This document shows positions 644-64,000 of a DNA stretch of 64,000 nucleotides, piece by piece; position 1 is the stretch's first letter, and every line of letters begins with the position of its first letter. The position numbers and the translations under genes were made by a program. The notes below the pieces were generated by a model. The model made no database searches. It had not been told where the DNA came from and saw only the letters and a program-made list of their open reading frames with translations. The stretch comes from Vulcanimicrobiota bacterium (GTDB taxonomy: Bacteria > Vulcanimicrobiota > Vulcanimicrobiia > Vulcanimicrobiales > Vulcanimicrobiaceae), in assembly GCA_963833095.1 (NCBI GenBank), contig CAWHWQ010000001.1, positions 288,001-352,000 on the forward strand, written 5' to 3'.

Positions 644-2768
644 TTGACGCAATAACATCGTTCTGACGATCGATGCGATCGGCGAGCGAACGCACGACCA
701 CAGCGTGAAACAGCATGGCGGCGCGCGCGTCTGCCGCCTCGATTGCGTCGAGCCCATCGCGGGTGAGCGCATAGACGACGGCGGGCGTTTCGGCCACGAC
801 GGTCGCGTCGCGCGGCAGGTGCCGATAAAATCCCATCTCGCCGATGGTCGTTTGCGGCCCAAGACTCGCAACGCGGACCTGACCTTCGCCGATGATGACG
901 GCAAGACGCCCAGAATCGATAAAGAACATTCGGTCTGCGACGTCGCCTTGCGCGCACAGAACGTCGCCCGTCGCCAATTCGATGGGCTCGAGGCGATCGT
1001 AGATCAGTTGCGCAAGCGTCGCGCCGAACCGCGCCGCTAGCCATGCTGCGACGCCTGGTAGCGCGTCAGGAGACGAGTCATAAAGCTGCAACAGCTGCGC
1101 TTCGCAGAATTCGAGCGCCAGATCGCGATCGCCGAACGCGAGCGGACGAAGGTGCTCTTCAAGCGACGCATCCCAAAGCATCCGGACGCGCGACGACATT
1201 CCACAGATCATGAACTGCACTCGATCCGCGTCGATGTTACGCGCGAACTTGACGAAGGCCGCGGCGGCCGACGAATCCATGCCGGTCACGCCGCCGAAAT
1301 CGACCACGATCCACATCACGCCGTCGATCTCGCGCGTGCAAGCAAGAAGTTCCCGGTAAAGCCGATCGGCGATGCCGAAAAACACGAACCCGCGCAGGCG
1401 AAAGATCCGCACGCGCGCGCCGTACTCGGCGAGCACCTCGGATTCGCGCTGCGAACGCTGCAGGCTCGAGCGGATCACCGCTCCAGACCAACGATGCTCC
1501 ACGACGTCGACACGTCCGTAGCGCACCACGAATGTGATGCAGCCTACGGCAAGACCGACGACGATGCCCGGCACGAAGCCAAACCAGACGATCGCGAGGA
1601 CGATCGCCCAAATCGTTACGTAATCGCCGACCGATTGACCGTGGGCCGGCCGTAGCAGCCATCGATAGGCTACCCCGCCTCCAAGAGCCATCAATAGGCC
1701 GGCGGGTGCAAATAGCGGGACGAAATTGATGAGGCGCCAAGGGCCGATCAGCATCGCCGCGACCGCACCGAGTCCGACGATGACGCCGACCGAGCGATCG
1801 CGCACGCCGAGCTGGTGATTCATCGACGTCCGCGCAAACGAGACGTAAGCGACCATACCGCCGAACAGCGCCGAGCCGATGTTCGCCCAGCCGGTGAGAC
1901 CCAATTCGCGATCGAGATCGACGTCTTTCCCGGTGAGGAGCTCAAGCCCGGTCTCGTTGAACAGAAGCGTAACCGCCGACACGATGGCCACCACCAGCAT
2001 AGCGGGAACGCTCATAAACGTGGCGCGCACATCGATCGGGGCGTGCAACGACCATGCGAACCACGGTGCGGCGGCCGGCATATCGAAGAACCACCCGCTC
2101 GCGCGCAAGCCCGCGAGCGGCAAATGGAACGCGGCTACCACCACGAGCGCCGCAGCGATCGATCCAAGAAAGCTCGCCGGAACCGCAACTGCGCCGAACT
2201 TGCGCGAAAGCAACAGCAGTGCGGCGGCGAGCGCAAGCGCGAGCGCGAACTGCGCGAGCACGGGCTGCGCAGCAAGCGCGCCCAACCCTCCAAGCCCTAG
2301 CGAATGCCCGGTCAGCACGCGCACCGAGCCGAGCATCACGAGCACGCCGGATGCCGCGTTGAAGCCACCGATCATCGGCTCGGGAATGAAGCGGATAACT
2401 CGCGACGCGCGAGCGGTTCCAAACGCAATCAACACGACGCCGGTCAGCAACGTAGCCAGCGCGATGACGGTGAGCAGCGTCGCAATGCGCTGCGCCGGAG
2501 CGACGACGACGAGCGCAGAGGCCACGAGCACCAGTACCGCCGTTGGATTGTTGTCGGGGCCTGCCATGGCGATCGGAAACTTGCTGAAGACCGCAGCGAC
2601 GAGGCCTCCGACTGCAACCGCGATCAACGCGGAAAAGACGCCTATTCCAAACCCGGCCTGGAACTCGCCGGAGAAAATGAGCGCTGCGAACGAAAGCGCA
2701 TAGGCCAGCGCAAGCGCGATGGCAACGAGGGAATGAAGCCCCCGCTCTACGGGTGCTTGATTTTGCAA
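621..2768 (-). CDS. SulP/SLC26 anion transporter with STAS and C-terminal cyclic-nucleotide-binding domain
   Basis: Multiple TM segments with AGPDNNP; STAS (LRGFVFFG, DFGGVTGMDSSA); cNMP domain (IGEMGFY..PRDATVVA). Confidence 0.9.
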   Translation of the reverse strand: MQNQAPVERGLHSLVAIALALAYALSFAALIFSGEFQAGFGIGVFSALIAVAVGGLVAAVFSKFPIAMAGPDNNPTAVLVLVASALVVVAPAQRIATLLTVIALATLLTGVVLIAFGTARASRVIRFIPEPMIGGFNAASGVLVMLGSVRVLTGHSLGLGGLGALAAQPVLAQFALALALAAALLLLSRKFGAVAVPASFLGSIAAALVVVAAFHLPLAGLRASGWFFDMPAAAPWFAWSLHAPIDVRATFMSVPAMLVVAIVSAVTLLFNETGLELLTGKDVDLDRELGLTGWANIGSALFGGMVAYVSFARTSMNHQLGVRDRSVGVIVGLGAVAAMLIGPWRLINFVPLFAPAGLLMALGGGVAYRWLLRPAHGQSVGDYVTIWAIVLAIVWFGFVPGIVVGLAVGCITFVVRYGRVDVVEHRWSGAVIRSSLQRSQRESEVLAEYGARVRIFRLRGFVFFGIADRLYRELLACTREIDGVMWIVVDFGGVTGMDSSAAAAFVKFARNIDADRVQFMICGMSSRVRMLWDASLEEHLRPLAFGDRDLALEFCEAQLLQLYDSSPDALPGVAAWLAARFGATLAQLIYDRLEPIELATGDVLCAQGDVADRMFFIDSGRLAVIIGEGQVRVASLGPQTTIGEMGFYRHLPRDATVVAETPAVVYALTRDGLDAIEAADARAAMLFHAVVVRSLADRIDRQNDVIASITRAWER

Positions 2769-58451: not shown

Positions 58452-59001
58452 AGCGGCGAGACGAAGCCTTCGCTTTCCGTTGCGCTTTCAAGAAGTAGAC
58501 CAGCACGCGCGTCTCTTCGCGAAAACCGACCAGACTCTTGGATTGCGCTGGATCGCGTAGCGCCTCGATCGCATAGAGCGCCGCCTCGTCTTGCGCAGCA
58601 GGATCGGCGTCGAGGTGATCTTCCGGTTGCGGATTGCGAACCAGCACCTCGGGATAGCGTTCGCGCAAGAGTGCGCCGATTAGTTCCAGCTCTTCCTTCG
58701 AAAAGCTGTCCGTGTCGCGAGTCACGTGAATGAAGGTCGTCGAGCGGTCGCCTTCGCATTCGACGCGCGTCAATCGCGCTTCGTCCTTGGCGAGCATCAG
58801 GTAGCCATTGATGTGATCGTCGATCGTCTCGGCCAGCGCCGCCTGCGCGCGCTTATCCAGCCGGGCGCGCAACGCAAACGTCAGCCGGACGCTGCCCTCG
58901 GCCGGCATCGAGCGAATCGATGCCAGTTCCGGGAAGCGCACCAGCAGTGCGCACACCAAGCTGACAGTGTCAGCGTTCTCTAAGGGAAGACGGCTATTCA
59001 T
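58450..59001 (-). CDS. Hypothetical protein
   Basis: VSLVCALLVRFPEL...LVGFREETRVLVYF; intact ORF. Confidence 0.7.
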   Translation of the reverse strand: MNSRLPLENADTVSLVCALLVRFPELASIRSMPAEGSVRLTFALRARLDKRAQAALAETIDDHINGYLMLAKDEARLTRVECEGDRSTTFIHVTRDTDSFSKEELELIGALLRERYPEVLVRNPQPEDHLDADPAAQDEAALYAIEALRDPAQSKSLVGFREETRVLVYFLKAQRKAKASSRR

Positions 59002-59069
59002 GATCGGGTCCACCTGATACGACGTGGCCTCCAGGCACCCCCTGCGGTCCACGTAGAATGGTAACCAAT

Positions 59070-59627
59070 GTGAGACCCCGGCAGTTGCCCGGCCTCGCCA
59101 TCTTGGGGTTGCTTGCCTCGCTTATCGCCCACACGGCGAGCTACGGCGGCAATCACGAGCTCGGCGGCGCCTACCACTCGACGCTCGAACTCCTGGCCCT
59201 CGTGGGCGCAGGGGCCTTTGCCGCGTCGCTGGTGGCATTTGCCTGGCTTGGAGCACGGCGCCACGCCGACGGCTCGATTCTGGCCGCCGCATTGCGGCCG
59301 CTGATTCCATCGGGAGCGCCCCTGGCGGTCAGCGCCAGCCTTTGGTTTGGGCTGATCGAAAGTCTCGAGCCCGAGCATCTCTGGCATGCCTCTCTTCTGG
59401 CTGTCGCTCTTTGCTTGATTGCGGCCAGCTTGCTGGTTGCGTTCTTGGCGAGCGCGGTCGTGCGTGCCGTCGCCGCGATCGTTCTTGCGATCGCGCGCGA
59501 GCCATTTGTCCGCCGGCCGGTTTGCTATCGCCGCCGCTTCGCTCATCGCTCCTCTGCGCGCCGCGCCGTTTTCGTCTACCGGCGCTTCGCCCGGCCTCCG
59601 CCGGGCCTGATGCTACTCCCCGTTTAG
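59070..59627 (+). CDS. His-containing membrane protein ending in RRFARPPP (putative regulatory arrest leader)
   Basis: About 4 TM segments; AHTASYGGNHELGGAYH and EHLWH; Arg-rich tail then RPPP; GTG start just after TAGAAT. Confidence 0.7.
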   Translation: MRPRQLPGLAILGLLASLIAHTASYGGNHELGGAYHSTLELLALVGAGAFAASLVAFAWLGARRHADGSILAAALRPLIPSGAPLAVSASLWFGLIESLEPEHLWHASLLAVALCLIAASLLVAFLASAVVRAVAAIVLAIAREPFVRRPVCYRRRFAHRSSARRAVFVYRRFARPPPGLMLLPV

Positions 59628-59654
59628 CATCACTTCAGTTTCAGAGGAGTACCC

Positions 59655-62079
59655 ATGTCTCGATGGATCGCGGCCGTCGATTGCCGCGTGCATATTTTTT
59701 TCCACCGCGCCTGCGCTTGCCGCTGTCACAGGCTTCGTACGCGGCGTAATCACTGAATCGGGTTCGCCGGCGGCCGGCGCATCGGTTACACTCACTGGCG
59801 AAGGGTCGCGCTTTGCTACCATGACGAACGCTCGAGGCGAGTACTCGTTCGCTGCGATTCCGTTCGGGCGTTACCAGCTCGTGGTCCATCGCGGCGGCGC
59901 GGAAGACCGCAGCGCCGAGGTCGAGGTTTCGGGCGACTCGGTTTCCACCGTCAACATCGACTTGCTCAAAACCATTGCTGTCACCGCCGTCAGCGCAAGC
60001 GCGGGCGCAAGCGGCACACCGGTTGCAGTTACCACCATCGACCGCGCACAGATCGACGATTCCCCCAATCGCGACAGCCTCAATAAGTTGATCACCACCG
60101 TGCCTGGCGCGGTCTCGTTCTCCTATAATGAGCCGGTGATCAACGGTTTCCATGGCGTGACCTACGAAATCGACGGCGCCCCGCTCCCGCTCGCGACCAC
60201 GTCAAACTTTGCCGAGATCGTGGATCCCAAAGATATCGATTCCCTGGAGATCTACACCGGTGCGATTCCCGCCGAATTCGGCGGCGACCGTATGGGTGCG
60301 GTGGTGAACATCATCACCGACCGGTTTGCCAACATCCCGGAAGGGACGTACGGGACGATTACCGGCGGCGGCGGCAATCAGGGACAAGCGTTGGGGCAGC
60401 TTGATACCGTTTCCCGCTTCGGGAACAACGAGGTTTTCCTCAATTTCAATGCATCTAGCACAAATCGCGGGATTGACGCTCCCACGTATACGCCGATTCA
60501 CGATGCCAGCTCAGCCAATGACCAGTTTCTACGCTGGGTTACGAAGCTCAACGATCGCTCGACGCTGGCCTTCGATTTTTCGAATCAATTCTCGCAGTTT
60601 CAAATCCCGATCAACACCGATCCAAACAATATCAACGATCCGATCTACGCGATTCCGGGCACCGATGACACGCAGCTGGAATACGATCGTTTCGCCAATC
60701 TTAATTTCACGCAGGTGTCGCGCGACGGCAACGGCGTCTTCCAGTTGATTCCGTGGTTCCGTTCGACCCGCGTCAACTATGACGGGGATCTCGCTGCCGA
60801 TGTCCAGGGGATGGGGCCAAACTTCGGCTGCGCAAACTATCCGGACTGCGCCTCCGACACGCCTCCCGATCCCGACTACATCAACAACGTCGGCCTCGCG
60901 CAAACCTCATACGCAAACTACCTCGGCCTGCGGGTATCGGAACTGCGTTCGAGCGACCGCCACACTTGGAAGGTCGGCCTTGACGTCAACCGTTCGAATT
61001 CAACGGGGTCGCAAACATATGCCTGTTATTACGTTGGCTGCGCGTTGCCGAGCGGCGGCGTGACGCCGCCAGTCGCGACGCCGTACTCTGCCTCGTCATC
61101 ATCGCAAGCGCAAGCCGGATCGCAGATCGGAATCTACGCCCAAGACAAGTGGCAGGCGTCGCAAAATGTCGTCTTCGACTACGGAATTCGCTATGATCAC
61201 TCGACGGGGTATACCAGCGGGTATATGATCGAACCGCGGTTCGGCGTGAACGTCTCCGACGGCGGACGCAACGTCTTCCACCTGTTCTACGGGCGCTACT
61301 ACGCGGCGCCGCTTCTTGAAGACGTGCGTCAAGCCTGCGTGATCTTTGCCGCGCAGGGCGGATGTTCAACCACTGCGCCGCCCTATGACCTCCAGCCCGA
61401 AATGGACAGCTACTACGAAATCGGGCTCCAGCATATCTTCAGCGGCAACCTTACCGGCTGGGTGAACCTCTATGAGAAGAACGTTGTCAACGTGCTCGAC
61501 ACGACGCAGCTTTTGAACACGCCGCTCTTTGCCGTCTACAACAACGCGATCGGGCACGCGCAGGGACTCGAGATCCGGCTGCAAGACCGCCAAAGTAACG
61601 GCAACAACTGGTTCTTCACCTCGACGATCTCCGAATCGCTCGCGGGTGGCATCTCGGGTTCGACGTTCCTGTTTCCGCCGGATGTGAACCAGGGGTTACC
61701 GCTCTCGTCGCCAGCGCAGCTCAGTATCGAAGATCACTCGCAGCTCGTCGACTCCACGGCGGGGTACACGGCGCACTTCGGCGGGCACCGCGCTTGGTTT
61801 GCGACGCTGCAAGCCGATTACGGAAGCGGGTTCCCCGTCCAGTTCGAAGACGCGAACGTCAACCTGAGCGGAACGCTTCCAGCGCACACGACGTTCGACT
61901 TTAGCACGGGGCGGATCGTCGGCGCCGGGGTCGGACCGGATTCCAAGGGCCTCGGCGTCACGCTCGATGTGCAGAACCTGCTCAATCACCAATACGTGAT
62001 CAAGATCGCGAACGGATTCAACACGACGCAGATCGCGAACTCGCGCACGTTTCTGCTCCGCTTTACGCAGCCGTTTTAG
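59655..62079 (+). CDS. TonB-dependent receptor (one indel in the signal-peptide region)
   Basis: GAGGAG SD + ATG 59655; carboxypeptidase-regulatory-like N-domain; plug YEIDGAP..IPAEFGGDRMGAVVNIIT; GIRYD; NLLN; C-terminal F. Confidence 0.9.
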
Positions 62080-62091
62080 AAAGTTGCTTAT

Positions 62092-62614
62092 ATGATTCAC
62101 CTATTCTCGCGCTTTTCGCGGTATTGCAATCGCGGCAATTGCCGCGGTCGCGATCCCCGCAAATGCAATGAACATGGGAACGGGCGTTACCTTAACGAAG
62201 GTCGCCGGGCCGTACAAACTCGTGCTCCAACTTCTGCCTGCTGAGCCGTTCTACACACAAGGCCAGTACGCCAAAGAGCACCCCAAAGATGGGATGCTCG
62301 TCGTCGGAGGCGCAACCCCGCTTGCGCTCAACGCCGCATCGCATCCCAATCATCATCTAATCGTTCACGTCTACAATGCCGCGAGCGGGAAGGCCGTCAC
62401 CGATGCAAAAGTGACGATCAGATATACGACGGTGTCGGGCGCGACTGATAGTCTTCCGGTGGTCGAAATGCAGGCGATCGGGAAGGGGCCGCAATCGACG
62501 CACTACGGGAATAATCTCAACCTTCCCGACGGTACCTGGACTGTTTCCGTCACGGCGAACGGGGCTGCGGCCACATTCACGGTGACGGCACAGGCCCCCA
62601 AGATGAAAATGTGA
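62092..62614 (+). CDS. Periplasmic P19/Tp34-like metal-binding protein (indel in signal peptide)
   Basis: IAIAAIAAVAIPANA signal in frame with MNMG...; HHLIVHVY, HYGNN, C-terminal MKM. Confidence 0.6.
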
Positions 62615-62696: not shown

Positions 62697-62706
62697 GCGT
62701 TACGGG

Positions 62707-64000
62707 CTAAACCGGATGCCCATGCTGAAGGTGCGCGGGGGAGCGTAATGGTTCCCCTGCGCATTGAGCAGCGTGACGTAGTAGCGGTCGTTGAGCAGGT
62801 TTTGAATGTTGAAGGTGAGCGCGGTCTTCGGCGCGATCGCGATGCCTTTCTCGACCGAGAAGATCGTGTGTGGCGTTTCTTTGCAGTAGCCCGGCGTCGT
62901 GTCCGGGCATACGGCCGACGAGAGGCCGCTGCCGTATTCGCCATCCAGCGATAACCAACCATTGTGCTTGTCGCGCAACAGCACGCCGCTCGCGACGCTG
63001 TAAGCGCTGCTCGTGATCGGCAGGCGTAAAGCCCGTCGGCTGGCCGAAACACGGCGCGAGCAATTGCGTTTCGCAACCGCTGTTCAGCGAGATCACGTGC
63101 GCGACCGAAGCGTAAAAACGACCGCCCCGCGCGAGCGGCTGCGTGTAGTTCAGCGCCTCTTGCGAGAGCCGGCCCAGCGTATAATTGATGTCCTGATGCA
63201 GCAGCGTCACGCCGACTTGGGTGTCGTCGATCAAATCATTCGCGTTCTTCTGCCAGACGCGAAAGCCGAGGTCGCCGGAGCCGAGCGGAATGTGGCCGCC
63301 CAGTTCGAGTTGCGTATCGCGCTCGGGCTTGAGATCGAATTGTGCGGCAGTTGGCTGCAAAGGCAGATTGAGCAGTTGCGCCGCATCCGGACTGACGTTT
63401 TCGAGCGAGAACGGTTCGAAGAACCGCCCGACGTACGCGTAAACGTTGGCCCGCGGTCCCCAGAACCGCGTCAGCTTCAGGCGCGGGCTGAAGGCGCCGA
63501 ATCCCTCGCCAAAATCAGTCGACTTGATCGAGAAGAAATCGTAGCGCAAACCATAGTCGGCTTCCCACAGGCTGCTCATCCGCCAGCTGTCCTGAATGTA
63601 GGACTGATAGGTATTGCCGAGGTTCGGCGCATTGTCGACGACCGTCGTGGGCACGTCGGGCGTGCCCGGCGTAAGAATCGGAGCCAGAAAGTTATTGGGC
63701 TGGAGCGTGATCGCGTAATACTTCAAGATGCGCGCCAGATCATACGAACCGCCGGCCGCGATGGTGTGCTTCCCGAATTGCTGGGTGTAGTCGGCCTGCA
63801 TGATGTAGTCGATCGCAGTGCGCTGGTCGGCCAGCGAGTAGGCGCAGGTCGTCGGGAGATACGAATCAGGGTTACTCATGGCGTCCGCGCAATCGGAAGA
63901 CGTGCCCCCGTTGCCGAACGGCGGCGGCGTCACGTTGAGCGACTCGCCGTAGATGAAATCGTTGTTCGGATCGCCGTAGTCCGCGATCTTGGACGATTTG
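62707..64000 (-). CDS. Second TonB-dependent receptor, C-terminal part (runs off the window; indel near 63000)
   Basis: YIQDSW, GLRYD, FSPRL, LKPERD, FNIQNLLNDRYY, PRTFSMGIRF. Confidence 0.88.
   Translation of the reverse strand, partial: KSSKIADYGDPNNDFIYGESLNVTPPPFGNGGTSSDCADAMSNPDSYLPTTCAYSLADQRTAIDYIMQADYTQQFGKHTIAAGGSYDLARILKYYAITLQPNNFLAPILTPGTPDVPTTVVDNAPNLGNTYQSYIQDSWRMSSLWEADYGLRYDFFSIKSTDFGEGFGAFSPRLKLTRFWGPRANVYAYVGRFFEPFSLENVSPDAAQLLNLPLQPTAAQFDLKPERDTQLELGGHIPLGSGDLGFRVWQKNANDLIDDTQVGVTLLHQDINYTLGRLSQEALNYTQPLARGGRFYASVAHVISLNSGCETQLLAPCFGQPTGFTPADHEQRLQRRERRAVARQAQWLVIAGWRIRQRPLVGRMPGHDAGLLQRNATHDLLGRERHRDRAEDRAHLQHSKPAQRPLLRHAAQCAGEPLRSPAHLQHGHPV

Follow-up and report, generated by a model that had tools for sequence, protein, structure and literature searches.

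Introduction

Leaders that couple metal sensing to translational arrest have been described between 2022 and 2025. In Bordetella pertussis, CruR (Bp2923, a DUF2946 protein) is encoded upstream of the TonB-dependent transporter BfrG, and copper was reported to relieve its arrest and permit Rho-dependent termination, so that uptake is off (Roy et al. 2022, PMC9426467). CutF of Rhodobacter capsulatus, also a DUF2946 protein, is encoded upstream of cutO; it is reported to stall at a C-terminal PPP under periplasmic copper, overriding elongation factor P (EF-P), and the stalled ribosome melts a stem-loop that shields the Shine-Dalgarno (SD) sequence (Ozturk et al., bioRxiv 10.1101/2025.02.05.636593). 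Fujiwara et al. 2025 (PMC12992588) described seven S. lividans proteins that arrest in vitro and in B. subtilis, including SLIV_18480, a protein with four predicted transmembrane (TM) segments and a copper site predicted to consist of three His and a Met, encoded ahead of a metal-related gene. The same paper found RAPP/RGPP upstream open reading frames (uORFs) enriched before genes for TonB receptors (signal-peptide type), YcnI (TM type), PCuAC and PepSY. In this study, we analysed a 64,000-nucleotide stretch of a Vulcanimicrobiota bacterium genome (contig CAWHWQ010000001.1, positions 288,001 to 352,000; hereafter the window), focusing on a leader gene at 59058..59627 that precedes genes for a TonB-dependent receptor and a P19-like protein. 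We propose that it encodes an RAPP-like arrest regulatory leader with a folded four-helix membrane sensor, working as a copper switch, and we put the probability of this overall mechanism at about 0.62. The kind of switch is already described; the protein family is uncatalogued and unannotated.

The leader resembles CruR, as described, in being the first operon gene before a TonB receptor in a copper context, in its C-terminal R-x-P-P near the stop, and in a conserved metal-ligand motif at a fixed distance from R-x-P-P. However, CruR is small and exported, carrying a signal peptide and CXXC, whereas the present leader has four TM helices, His/Glu residues and no conserved Cys; CruR carries RAPP, whereas 95% of the present family carries RPPP; and CruR acts through Rho across a 162-nt spacer, whereas the present family combines short spacers with SD masking. 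The features that define DUF2946 proteins (the profile, and CXXC or the CutF CXXXC together with a cleavable signal peptide) are lacking in the present leader. With CutF it shares a C-terminal PPP and, by prediction, a stall subject to EF-P, melting of the SD shield and a membrane-spanning nascent chain that would sense periplasmic metal. CutF, in contrast, is reported to be secreted and Cys-based, to control a detoxifying oxidase and to stall in response to copper. Since uptake-type genes follow the present leader, a response of opposite sign to that of CutF is expected.

SLIV_18480, compared here by description only, is similar in its four TM segments, C-terminal RxPP, predicted His copper site and metal-linked neighbour. 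The TonB-linked uORFs in that survey (PMC12992588) are almost all signal-peptide proteins, whereas the present leaders are polytopic. RPPP is absent from the main text of the paper, which surveyed RAPP and RGPP and whose supplements may list related ORFs; a survey so limited would miss about 95% of the present family. ApdA/ApdP/ApcA and SecM likewise place R-x-P-P at the peptidyl-transferase centre, near the stop, behind an N-terminal localization signal (PMC7897499, PMC10951233), but they are described as monitoring Sec/YidC and preceding sec or yidC genes. EF-P is reported not to relieve RAPP arrest; RPPP, in contrast, is one of its classical substrates.

The leader gene and its protein family

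The leader and its two principal elements are as follows.

59058..59627 (+): leader gene, encoding a 189-aa four-TM protein of an uncatalogued family with an Arg-rich, predicted disordered cytoplasmic tail ending RRFARPPPGLMLLPV
59592..59603 (+): codons of R179-P180-P181-P182, where arrest is predicted, P181 occupying the P-site and P182 the A-site
59130..59378 (+): candidate metal-site codons (H25 at 59130, H33 at 59154, H40 at 59175, E101 at 59358, E104 at 59367, H107 at 59376)

The leader ORF has an alternative GTG start at 59070 and ends at the TAG at 59625-59627. Its codon-position GC content (0.71/0.54/0.76) is coding-like and matches that of the neighbouring genes. The protein had 188 homologues at E<=0.01, and the exhaustive library gave 213 cluster representatives at E<=0.001, while Pfam and NCBIfam searches returned no match. 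DUF2946 (PF11162) was matched by none of 120 family members at E<=0.1, and the window protein had no Pfam match of any kind. Fused or longer relatives did not turn up, which is weak evidence; the family itself was not found in the literature searched; and an Rfam scan of 58800-59900 gave no match near any gathering score.

Distribution was assessed in 401 genomes of the phylum, a sample that takes in five unpublished genomes (G178, G213, G248, G264 and G276). Of 296 genomes of the window's own bacterial family, 191 had the protein; none of the 104 genomes representing 20 other families did. Homologues carry the source names Baltobacteraceae, Aquilonibacter, Cybelea, Tumulicola and Eremiobacteraeota, for which the Atlas uses Vulcanimicrobiota. 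By these sequence-based signs the leader is a real gene, and the uncatalogued family to which it belongs is restricted to a single bacterial family within Vulcanimicrobiota/Eremiobacterota.

An R[PA]PP motif near the stop codon

Of 262 family proteins, 245 reach profile position 170 or beyond and so include the C-terminus. All 245 carry R[PA]PP within their last 30 residues (234 RPPP, 11 RAPP), and in 242 the motif lies 0-11 residues before the stop. The core of the RAPP-like class, R-[A/G]-P-P or RAGP/RAPG near the stop, is therefore present, in the window as the RPPP variant and in 11 members as canonical RAPP. RAPP replaces RPPP in several branches (L012, L038, L049b, L055, L058, L059), and the residues after the motif vary freely. 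This interchange, together with the free residues behind it, fits a motif read at the peptidyl-transferase centre better than a binding epitope. An apparent exception, locus L033, also has RRFARPPP, its usual stop being out of frame. These counts bear out the terminal R-[AGP]-P-P conservation anticipated in a first-pass annotation of this DNA, whose description of RPPP at 59592-59603, the RRFARPPP tail and the His clusters also agrees with the sequence itself.

Arrest is reported for RxPP with G, A, S or P as x, and an A-to-P substitution in RAP partly keeps the arrest of ApdA/ApdP (PMC12992588). In E. coli lacking EF-P, RPPP was the strongest XPPP stall (Starosta et al. 2014, PMC4176338). We set the P-site at the third motif residue by analogy with the CruR toeprint (PMC12992588). 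On this comparative evidence the leader is probably of the RxPP arrest type, a reading that we hold more firmly than the mechanism as a whole.

A four-helix membrane domain with a candidate metal site

We modelled the leader with AlphaFold2 (AF2) from a 120-sequence alignment, obtaining a mean predicted local distance difference test (pLDDT) score of 87.9 and a predicted template-modelling score (pTM) of 0.77. The model has helices at 7-29, 37-65, 72-82/86-102 (together 72-102) and 113-150, followed by an unstructured tail at 151-189 with pLDDT about 62-65. These four long hydrophobic helices would serve as the N-terminal localization signal, as judged from the AF2 model and not from a dedicated topology predictor. 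A Foldseek comparison of the four-TM model with the PDB gave no match at E<=0.001.

The His/Glu pattern reads H25-x7-H33-x6-H40 and E106-H107-L-W-H110. Among 218 full-length members, H25, H33, P84, E101, E104, R179, P181 and P182 are invariant, whereas P180 (95%, otherwise A), H107 (92%) and H40 (84%) are less strict; the conservation expected of the His residues at first pass holds fully for H25 and H33 and in part for the other two. No Cys column conserved at >=80% was found in the same 218 sequences. H25 and H33 are 8 residues apart in 215 of 218 members and E101 and E104 are 3 apart in all 218, while E104 and R179 are separated by 74-75 residues in 180 of 218 (range 72-79).

The positive-inside rule (R6/R8, R67/R68 and the Arg-rich tail) would place the N-terminus and the tail in the cytoplasm. 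The His/Glu residues would consequently lie on the periplasmic face, with H25, H33 and H40 and E101, E104 and H107 at the periplasmic ends of TM1/TM2 and TM3/TM4. The ribosome exit tunnel holds 30-40 residues. The last residue of TM4 (113-150) is about 31 residues away from residue 181 in the P-site, so TM4 would have just emerged from the tunnel when residue 181 is at the peptidyl-transferase centre, that is, at RPPP.

Predicted RNA masking by the stall codons in other genera

In 40 of 44 loci from genera other than the window's, most of the minimum-free-energy partners of the downstream SD lay within -12..+15 nt of the predicted P-site, compared with 10 of 119 co-directional gene pairs of the window's genome taken as a control. 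As a rule the SD pairs with CCUCCUCCG and the codon after it; a few distant genera use the final codons together with the stop instead. Leader-to-next-gene spacers range from 22 to 79 nt.

The codons of the motif are biased accordingly. CCU makes up 65 of 127 motif Pro codons (51%); elsewhere in the leader it accounts for 8% of 347 Pro codons, and in the downstream genes for 6% of 1457. The helix reaches into the codon that follows PPP, all of whose bases are paired in 22 of 44 loci. Six different combinations of this codon and its partner occur, with matched changes in the SD flank (AUC:GAU, GUC:GAC, GUG:CAC, ACG:CGU, CGG:CCG and AUCUUG:CAAGAU). Cognate duplexes averaged -16.0 kcal/mol and non-cognate ones -13.0, and 0 of 5000 permutations were as low, a figure inflated by the relatedness of the loci. 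When a single ribosome was modelled as covering -15..+15, the mean cost of opening the SD fell from 9.7 to 6.3 kcal/mol (n=44); the cost dropped by >=2 kcal/mol in 28 of 44 loci and rose by that much in none.

These results indicate that in most genera the predicted stall codons themselves form the SD mask, with covariation. This is a design of the SecM/CutF type, in which the stalled ribosome sits on the anti-SD. The synonymous Pro codons, and the Ser codons of the window's own genus described below, point clearly to selection at the RNA level.

As a separate observation, a GC hairpin across the leader stop is followed by a U-run, as in a terminator, at 1482-1499 (-) of L019 and also in L022, L027 and L030. 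This subclade has 3 terminator-like sites versus 0.7 +/- 0.8 in shuffles and may add an attenuation layer.

A predicted, rewired mask in the window's own genus

For the window's own genus we compared 15 loci by RNAalifold consensus. The elements around the leader stop are as follows.

59549..59556 (+): CUCCUCUG, codons R-S-S-A, main predicted anti-SD of the genus
59558..59585 (+): hairpin A, GCGCCG / CGGCGC, a consensus stem of 6 pairs, nearly invariant
59589..59607 (+): hairpin 0, over the A-R-P-P-P-G codons, from a single-sequence fold, with 5 consensus pairs, two of them changed on both sides
59608..59632 (+): hairpin 1, UGAUGCUA / UAGCAUCA with loop CUCCCCGUU, spanning the stop codon
59614..59619 (+): UACUCC, secondary SD partner, predicted solely upon disruption of hairpin 1
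59642..59657 (+): Shine-Dalgarno CAGAGGAGUA with the receptor ATG (59655)

The predicted partner of the SD is CUCCUCUG, which pairs with CAGAGGAG (59642-49) at a probability of 0.86-0.89 in contexts of 90-400 nt. In the consensus this helix closes a junction that encloses hairpins A, 0 and 1. The Ser codons of CUCCUCUG are UCC-UCU in 14 of 15 loci, while UCU and UCC account for 5% and 16% of 646 Ser codons nearby, and the SD core AGAGGAG is invariant in all 15. No compensatory change was seen in the closing helix among the 15 loci, because both of its sides are nearly invariant. Hairpin 1 is better supported: 93% of its cells are paired across the 15 loci, only 3 of 500 shuffles reach its covariation score, and pair 76/97 occurs as UA, CG and AU.

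The first-pass annotation had placed TACTCC at 59614-59619, the exact complement of GGAGTA at 59646-59651, 27 nt between the leader stop and ATG 59655, and a competing perfect 8-bp stem, TGATGCTA/TAGCATCA, at 59608-15/59625-32. All three are present, and the stem is kept in the 15 same-genus loci with compensatory changes. The role assigned to TACTCC as an anti-SD occluded by the stalled ribosome was not supported. Pairing of UACUCC with the SD does not exceed chance, since 157 of 500 shuffles pair as well and the core CUCC:GGAG alone is kept; with the dominant partner predicted to be CUCCUCUG (P about 0.88), TACTCC was rejected as the principal anti-SD. Moreover, with P181 (59598) in the P-site and a footprint to +15, the ribosome ends at 59613 and TACTCC is not occluded. 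The stalled ribosome would instead cover the 5' strand of hairpin 1 and so leave TACTCC available for pairing with the SD.

In none of the 15 loci does the SD partner lie under the stalled ribosome. In the modelled stall in the window, SD pairing with CUCCUCUG fell from 0.88 to 0.18 and pairing with UACUCC rose from about 0 to 0.47. The cost of opening the SD, 9.6 kcal/mol without a ribosome, fell only to 7.6; a footprint extended to +18 brought it to 6.6, and queued ribosomes covering upstream RNA as well brought it to 4.2. The own-genus mean under the mask went from 9.1 to 6.9 kcal/mol (n=15). In this model the stall probably still favours initiation in the window's genus. Given the 0 of 15 loci and the small predicted effect, the switch may work differently here, and its read-out may lie in partial unmasking, in queued ribosomes, in reinitiation over the 24-33-nt spacer or at the level of transcription.

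We also scanned the window region for a terminator. Two sites were found versus 1.2 +/- 1.4 in shuffles, neither of them in the spacer, and a terminator in the spacer was rejected.

Downstream genes and the copper context

Two genes follow the leader.

59655..62079 (+): TonB-dependent receptor gene (CarboxypepD_reg + Plug + barrel), with a frame break near 59677-59680
62092..62614 (+): P19/FetP-like periplasmic protein gene, its mature part being the 62168-62614 frame (AF2 pLDDT 91.1)

The context of the family was examined in 59 non-redundant leader/downstream pairs, leaving out the duplicates L003 and L062, L033 (frame change), L042 and the N-terminal fragment rows L061/L062. The next gene is a CarboxypepD_reg + Plug (+ barrel) receptor in 50 of the 59, in agreement with the synteny anticipated at first pass; one of the 59, L004, has a broken receptor frame and was left out of the domain scan. 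In six pairs (L024, L038, L041, L049, L050, L057) the next gene encodes a 287-318-aa protein without a Pfam family, with CopC and/or CopD-cytochrome c behind it in L041, L049 and L050. The leaders of two other pairs precede a CopC-CopD-S26 fusion gene, after which comes YcnI/DUF1775. The 287-318-aa proteins encoded directly after the leader form a secreted family with the mature N-terminus HVVCGDR... and occur in CopC/CopD-type operons.

In the window, the +1 frame at 59611-62076 matches PF07715 (6.5e-11), PF00593 (5.5e-14) and CarboxypepD_reg (1.4e-13), giving the Plug and 22-strand barrel domain of a TonB receptor. For the third gene, the model has the P19/FetP/FtrA/Tp34 beta-sandwich fold. 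Its top Foldseek hits are FetP, FtrA, CrdA, P19 and Tp34, which all bind copper (probability 1.00, template-modelling (TM) score about 0.6), the best being FetP 5i0x_A (E 1.2e-3, TM score 0.63/0.61), with P19 3lzo_A at TMq 0.65; none reaches E<=0.001. By sequence, no Pfam family was matched at E<=0.01, PF10634 included, and no PDB sequence match was found beyond E 0.25. The P19-like identity suggested at first pass is hence upheld by fold and not by a sequence profile. The Atlas feature lead for this protein (score 0.90) refers to a cluster with 71% of members carrying PF10634, and P19-like homologues lie two genes from leader homologues in three other assemblies, according to source locus tags. 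The receptor and the P19-like protein are likely a copper (or copper-dependent iron) uptake unit.

Frame breaks in this assembly

The first-pass annotation missed a frame break in the receptor gene and another in the P19-like gene. ATG 59655 opens a frame of only 33 codons. The receptor body lies in the +1 frame, which is open from 59611 without a start codon before 59821, and the window has one extra base near 59677-59680 compared with same-genus relatives. The receptor frame is open from its ATG in 13 of 15 same-genus loci. ORF 62168-62614 (148 aa) lacks the signal peptide present in 172-184-aa homologues, and ATG 62092 and the hydrophobic core of the signal peptide are in two different frames.

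The source genome is in 8 contigs and is estimated to be 80.7% complete, which is why we lean towards reading the frame breaks as assembly indels. One short-read contig from a 95-99% similar strain reads through the site without T59677, with only 9 letters covering it. No contig spans 59675-59695 in the window's form, and the contigs of another strain diverge at 59674. Over 3.5 kb, four same-genus loci are only 74-91% identical to the window, with gaps that are mostly alignment noise.

Several further irregularities were noted. The break in the P19-like gene is a second one of the +1 type, right after a start codon and adjacent to the receptor's break. L004 (genome G281) has a one-base break in the receptor signal-peptide region, leaving a 39-codon ORF, at another position than the window's. 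The convergent TonB-dependent receptor at 62700-63999 (-) appears split over two frames: its 430-aa frame ends in an Arg-rich, out-of-frame-looking stretch, and a 94-aa ORF at 62700-62984 is a typical receptor C-terminus. A GC hairpin (CGCGGC/GCCGCG) with a T7 run lies at 59669-59700, within the receptor signal-peptide codons and with the extra base in its loop; it is not above shuffle expectation.

Proposed mechanism and alternative explanations

In the mechanism that we propose, TM1-TM3 would insert into the inner membrane during synthesis and present the His/Glu site (H25, H33, E101, E104, plus H107 and H40) to the periplasm. The ribosome would stall once P181 occupies the P-site and P182 the A-site, TM4 having just left the exit tunnel, and would there cover or disrupt the RNA that masks the downstream SD. 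Translation of the TonB receptor and the P19-like protein (in paralogous loci CopC/CopD/YcnI) could then follow. Copper at the periplasmic site would most likely alter folding or the packing of TM4 and release the arrest; the released ribosome would terminate, the mask would re-form and the uptake genes would be off, a logic like that of CruR. Copper as the signal and the sign of the response are less certain than the mechanism as a whole, and how the rewired RNA of the window's own genus would read the stall is conjectural. The metal-linked RxPP leader controlling a receptor that the first-pass annotation envisaged thus gains comparative support, although the RNA geometry drawn for the window does not. 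Its description as a His-ligand, polytopic version of CruR fits the four TM helices and the His/Glu site, but its novelty was overstated, arrest by four-TM RAPP/RGPP proteins of S. lividans having already been shown.

A broader scheme, which we consider doubtful, treats the family as a series of alternative read-outs for one periplasmic copper sensor, with a collision- or dwell-time-counting switch in the window's genus. The packing force of TM4 would relay the metal signal to an RPPP/RAPP arrest that overrides EF-P, the mask of the window's genus would have shifted 45 nt upstream into a junction enclosing the stall site, and UACUCC would be a second anti-SD kept in reserve by the stop-codon hairpin. 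Opening the receptor SD could then need a queue of collided ribosomes or termination-reinitiation.

Several points weigh against the proposed mechanism. RPPP stalls are normally relieved by EF-P, which the window's genome encodes, so a lasting arrest would need upstream nascent-chain context, as in CutF. The well-folded, conserved four-TM domain suggests that the protein may also have a function of its own, and arrest, metal binding and regulation are all steps that we infer. In the other genera, CCUCC-type Pro codons are by nature complementary to any SD, and the permutation test on the duplexes is inflated as stated. In the window's genus no SD partner lies under the stalled ribosome, and in the model the opening effect is small, with the SD recaptured by UACUCC. 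The OprC/TonB-copper type is not among the NCBIfam matches of the receptor, so copper would follow solely from the paralogue context and the P19-like fold. Finally, the receptor and the P19-like gene are out of frame in this assembly.

This last point raises the question of whether the operon is decaying in this genome, with real frame breaks and a leader that gates nothing functional. Each of two adjacent genes occupies two frames, as the convergent receptor at 62700-63999 also appears to do, and the signal-peptide region of the L004 receptor is broken as well. Nevertheless, a genome in 8 contigs at 80.7% completeness fits indel errors, 13 of 15 same-genus loci are intact, as is the leader itself, and the contig of the 95-99% similar strain lacks the extra base, with only 9 letters over the site; we regard decay as unlikely, though it deserves more weight than the explanations that follow. 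The leader could also be an ordinary inner-membrane component of copper or other metal uptake, such as a metal-binding subunit that faces the periplasm, with RRFARPPP as a protein-binding or sorting motif and plain operon co-expression or translational coupling. A confidently folded four-helix domain with an invariant His/Glu site, a full size of 189 aa, unlike short leaders, and the presence of EF-P, with arrest itself something we infer, would all suit such a protein. It would not predict RNA-level selection on the motif Pro codons (51% CCU vs 6%) and the own-genus Ser codons, an SD flank that covaries with the codon after PPP, interchange of RPPP and RAPP with free residues behind them, or a motif always a few codons before the stop, and the arresting four-TM RAPP/RGPP proteins of S. 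lividans (PMC12992588) are a further precedent against it. We judge this explanation improbable.

About equally improbable, in our view, is an arrest that acts mainly on transcription, through Rho protection or prevention of an intrinsic terminator, replacing or adding to SD unmasking, especially in the window's genus. CruR is reported to work through Rho (PMC9426467), the main anti-SD of the own genus is not covered by the stalled ribosome, and some other loci (L019) have a GC hairpin across the stop and then a U-run. Against this, spacers are 22-79 nt vs 162 nt in cruR (PMC9426467), the terminator scan of the window did not stand out from shuffles, and SD masking is strongly supported in 40 of 44 loci. 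Still less probable is an arrest leader without a metal signal, in which the insertion force of TM4 releases the stall and the leader monitors Sec/YidC or membrane state. The position of TM4, ending about 31 residues before residue 181 and just out of the tunnel, agrees with such a monitor, and most characterised RAPP peptides are described as monitors of localization; MifM, SecM, VemP and ApdA/ApdP are of this kind, but here the downstream genes are not localization factors. They are receptors and copper proteins, never sec or yidC in 59 pairs, and the invariant H/H/E/E residues would be unneeded in a pure insertion monitor.

Under the proposed copper-switch mechanism, metal-linked RAPP-like arrest leaders take in an uncultured soil phylum as well as an unannotated protein family, whose 'hypothetical proteins' can be labelled candidate regulatory leaders. 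The occurrence of RPPP and RAPP at the same position in one homologous family is comparative evidence for their functional interchange in nature, and two or three masking solutions for the same protein switch show RNA rewiring in evolution. How an extracytoplasmic metal alters the force on an arrested chain was left unresolved in the CruR and CutF work; the family lends itself to this question, with its well-folded sensor, its four invariant candidate ligands and a spacer fixed at 74-75 residues.

Other leader-like ORFs and unusual loci

Two further polytopic ORFs with R[AG]PP ends were found in the same genome, and their homology to the leader family was not detectable (hhalign probability about 1%). 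One, G000:C7:46927-47622 (+) (locus L064, 28-723), ends ...RCKRGPPLSARALPAH, and a further CarboxypepD_reg-Plug receptor gene (846 aa) begins 24 nt downstream of it. The other, G000:C1:613395-614048 (-) (locus L063, 4096-4749), ends ...RIGNRAPPISFA and is followed by an SD and the ATG of a LytR_cpsA_psr (LCP) gene, making it a possible RAPP leader for a cell-envelope gene.

Two loci of the leader family have unusual arrangements. At about 1055-1160 of L042, an SD and a mini-ORF of 17 codons come after the leader, and a gene for a membrane-anchored redoxin of the AhpC/TSA type begins at an ATG that overlaps the stop of the mini-ORF. L049 (genome G222, contig 9) has two leader-led operons in tandem, 3.7 kb apart: the first consists of an RPPP leader, a 301-aa unknown protein, CopC and CopD-cytochrome c, and the second of an RAPP leader, a TonB receptor and a 278-aa unknown protein.

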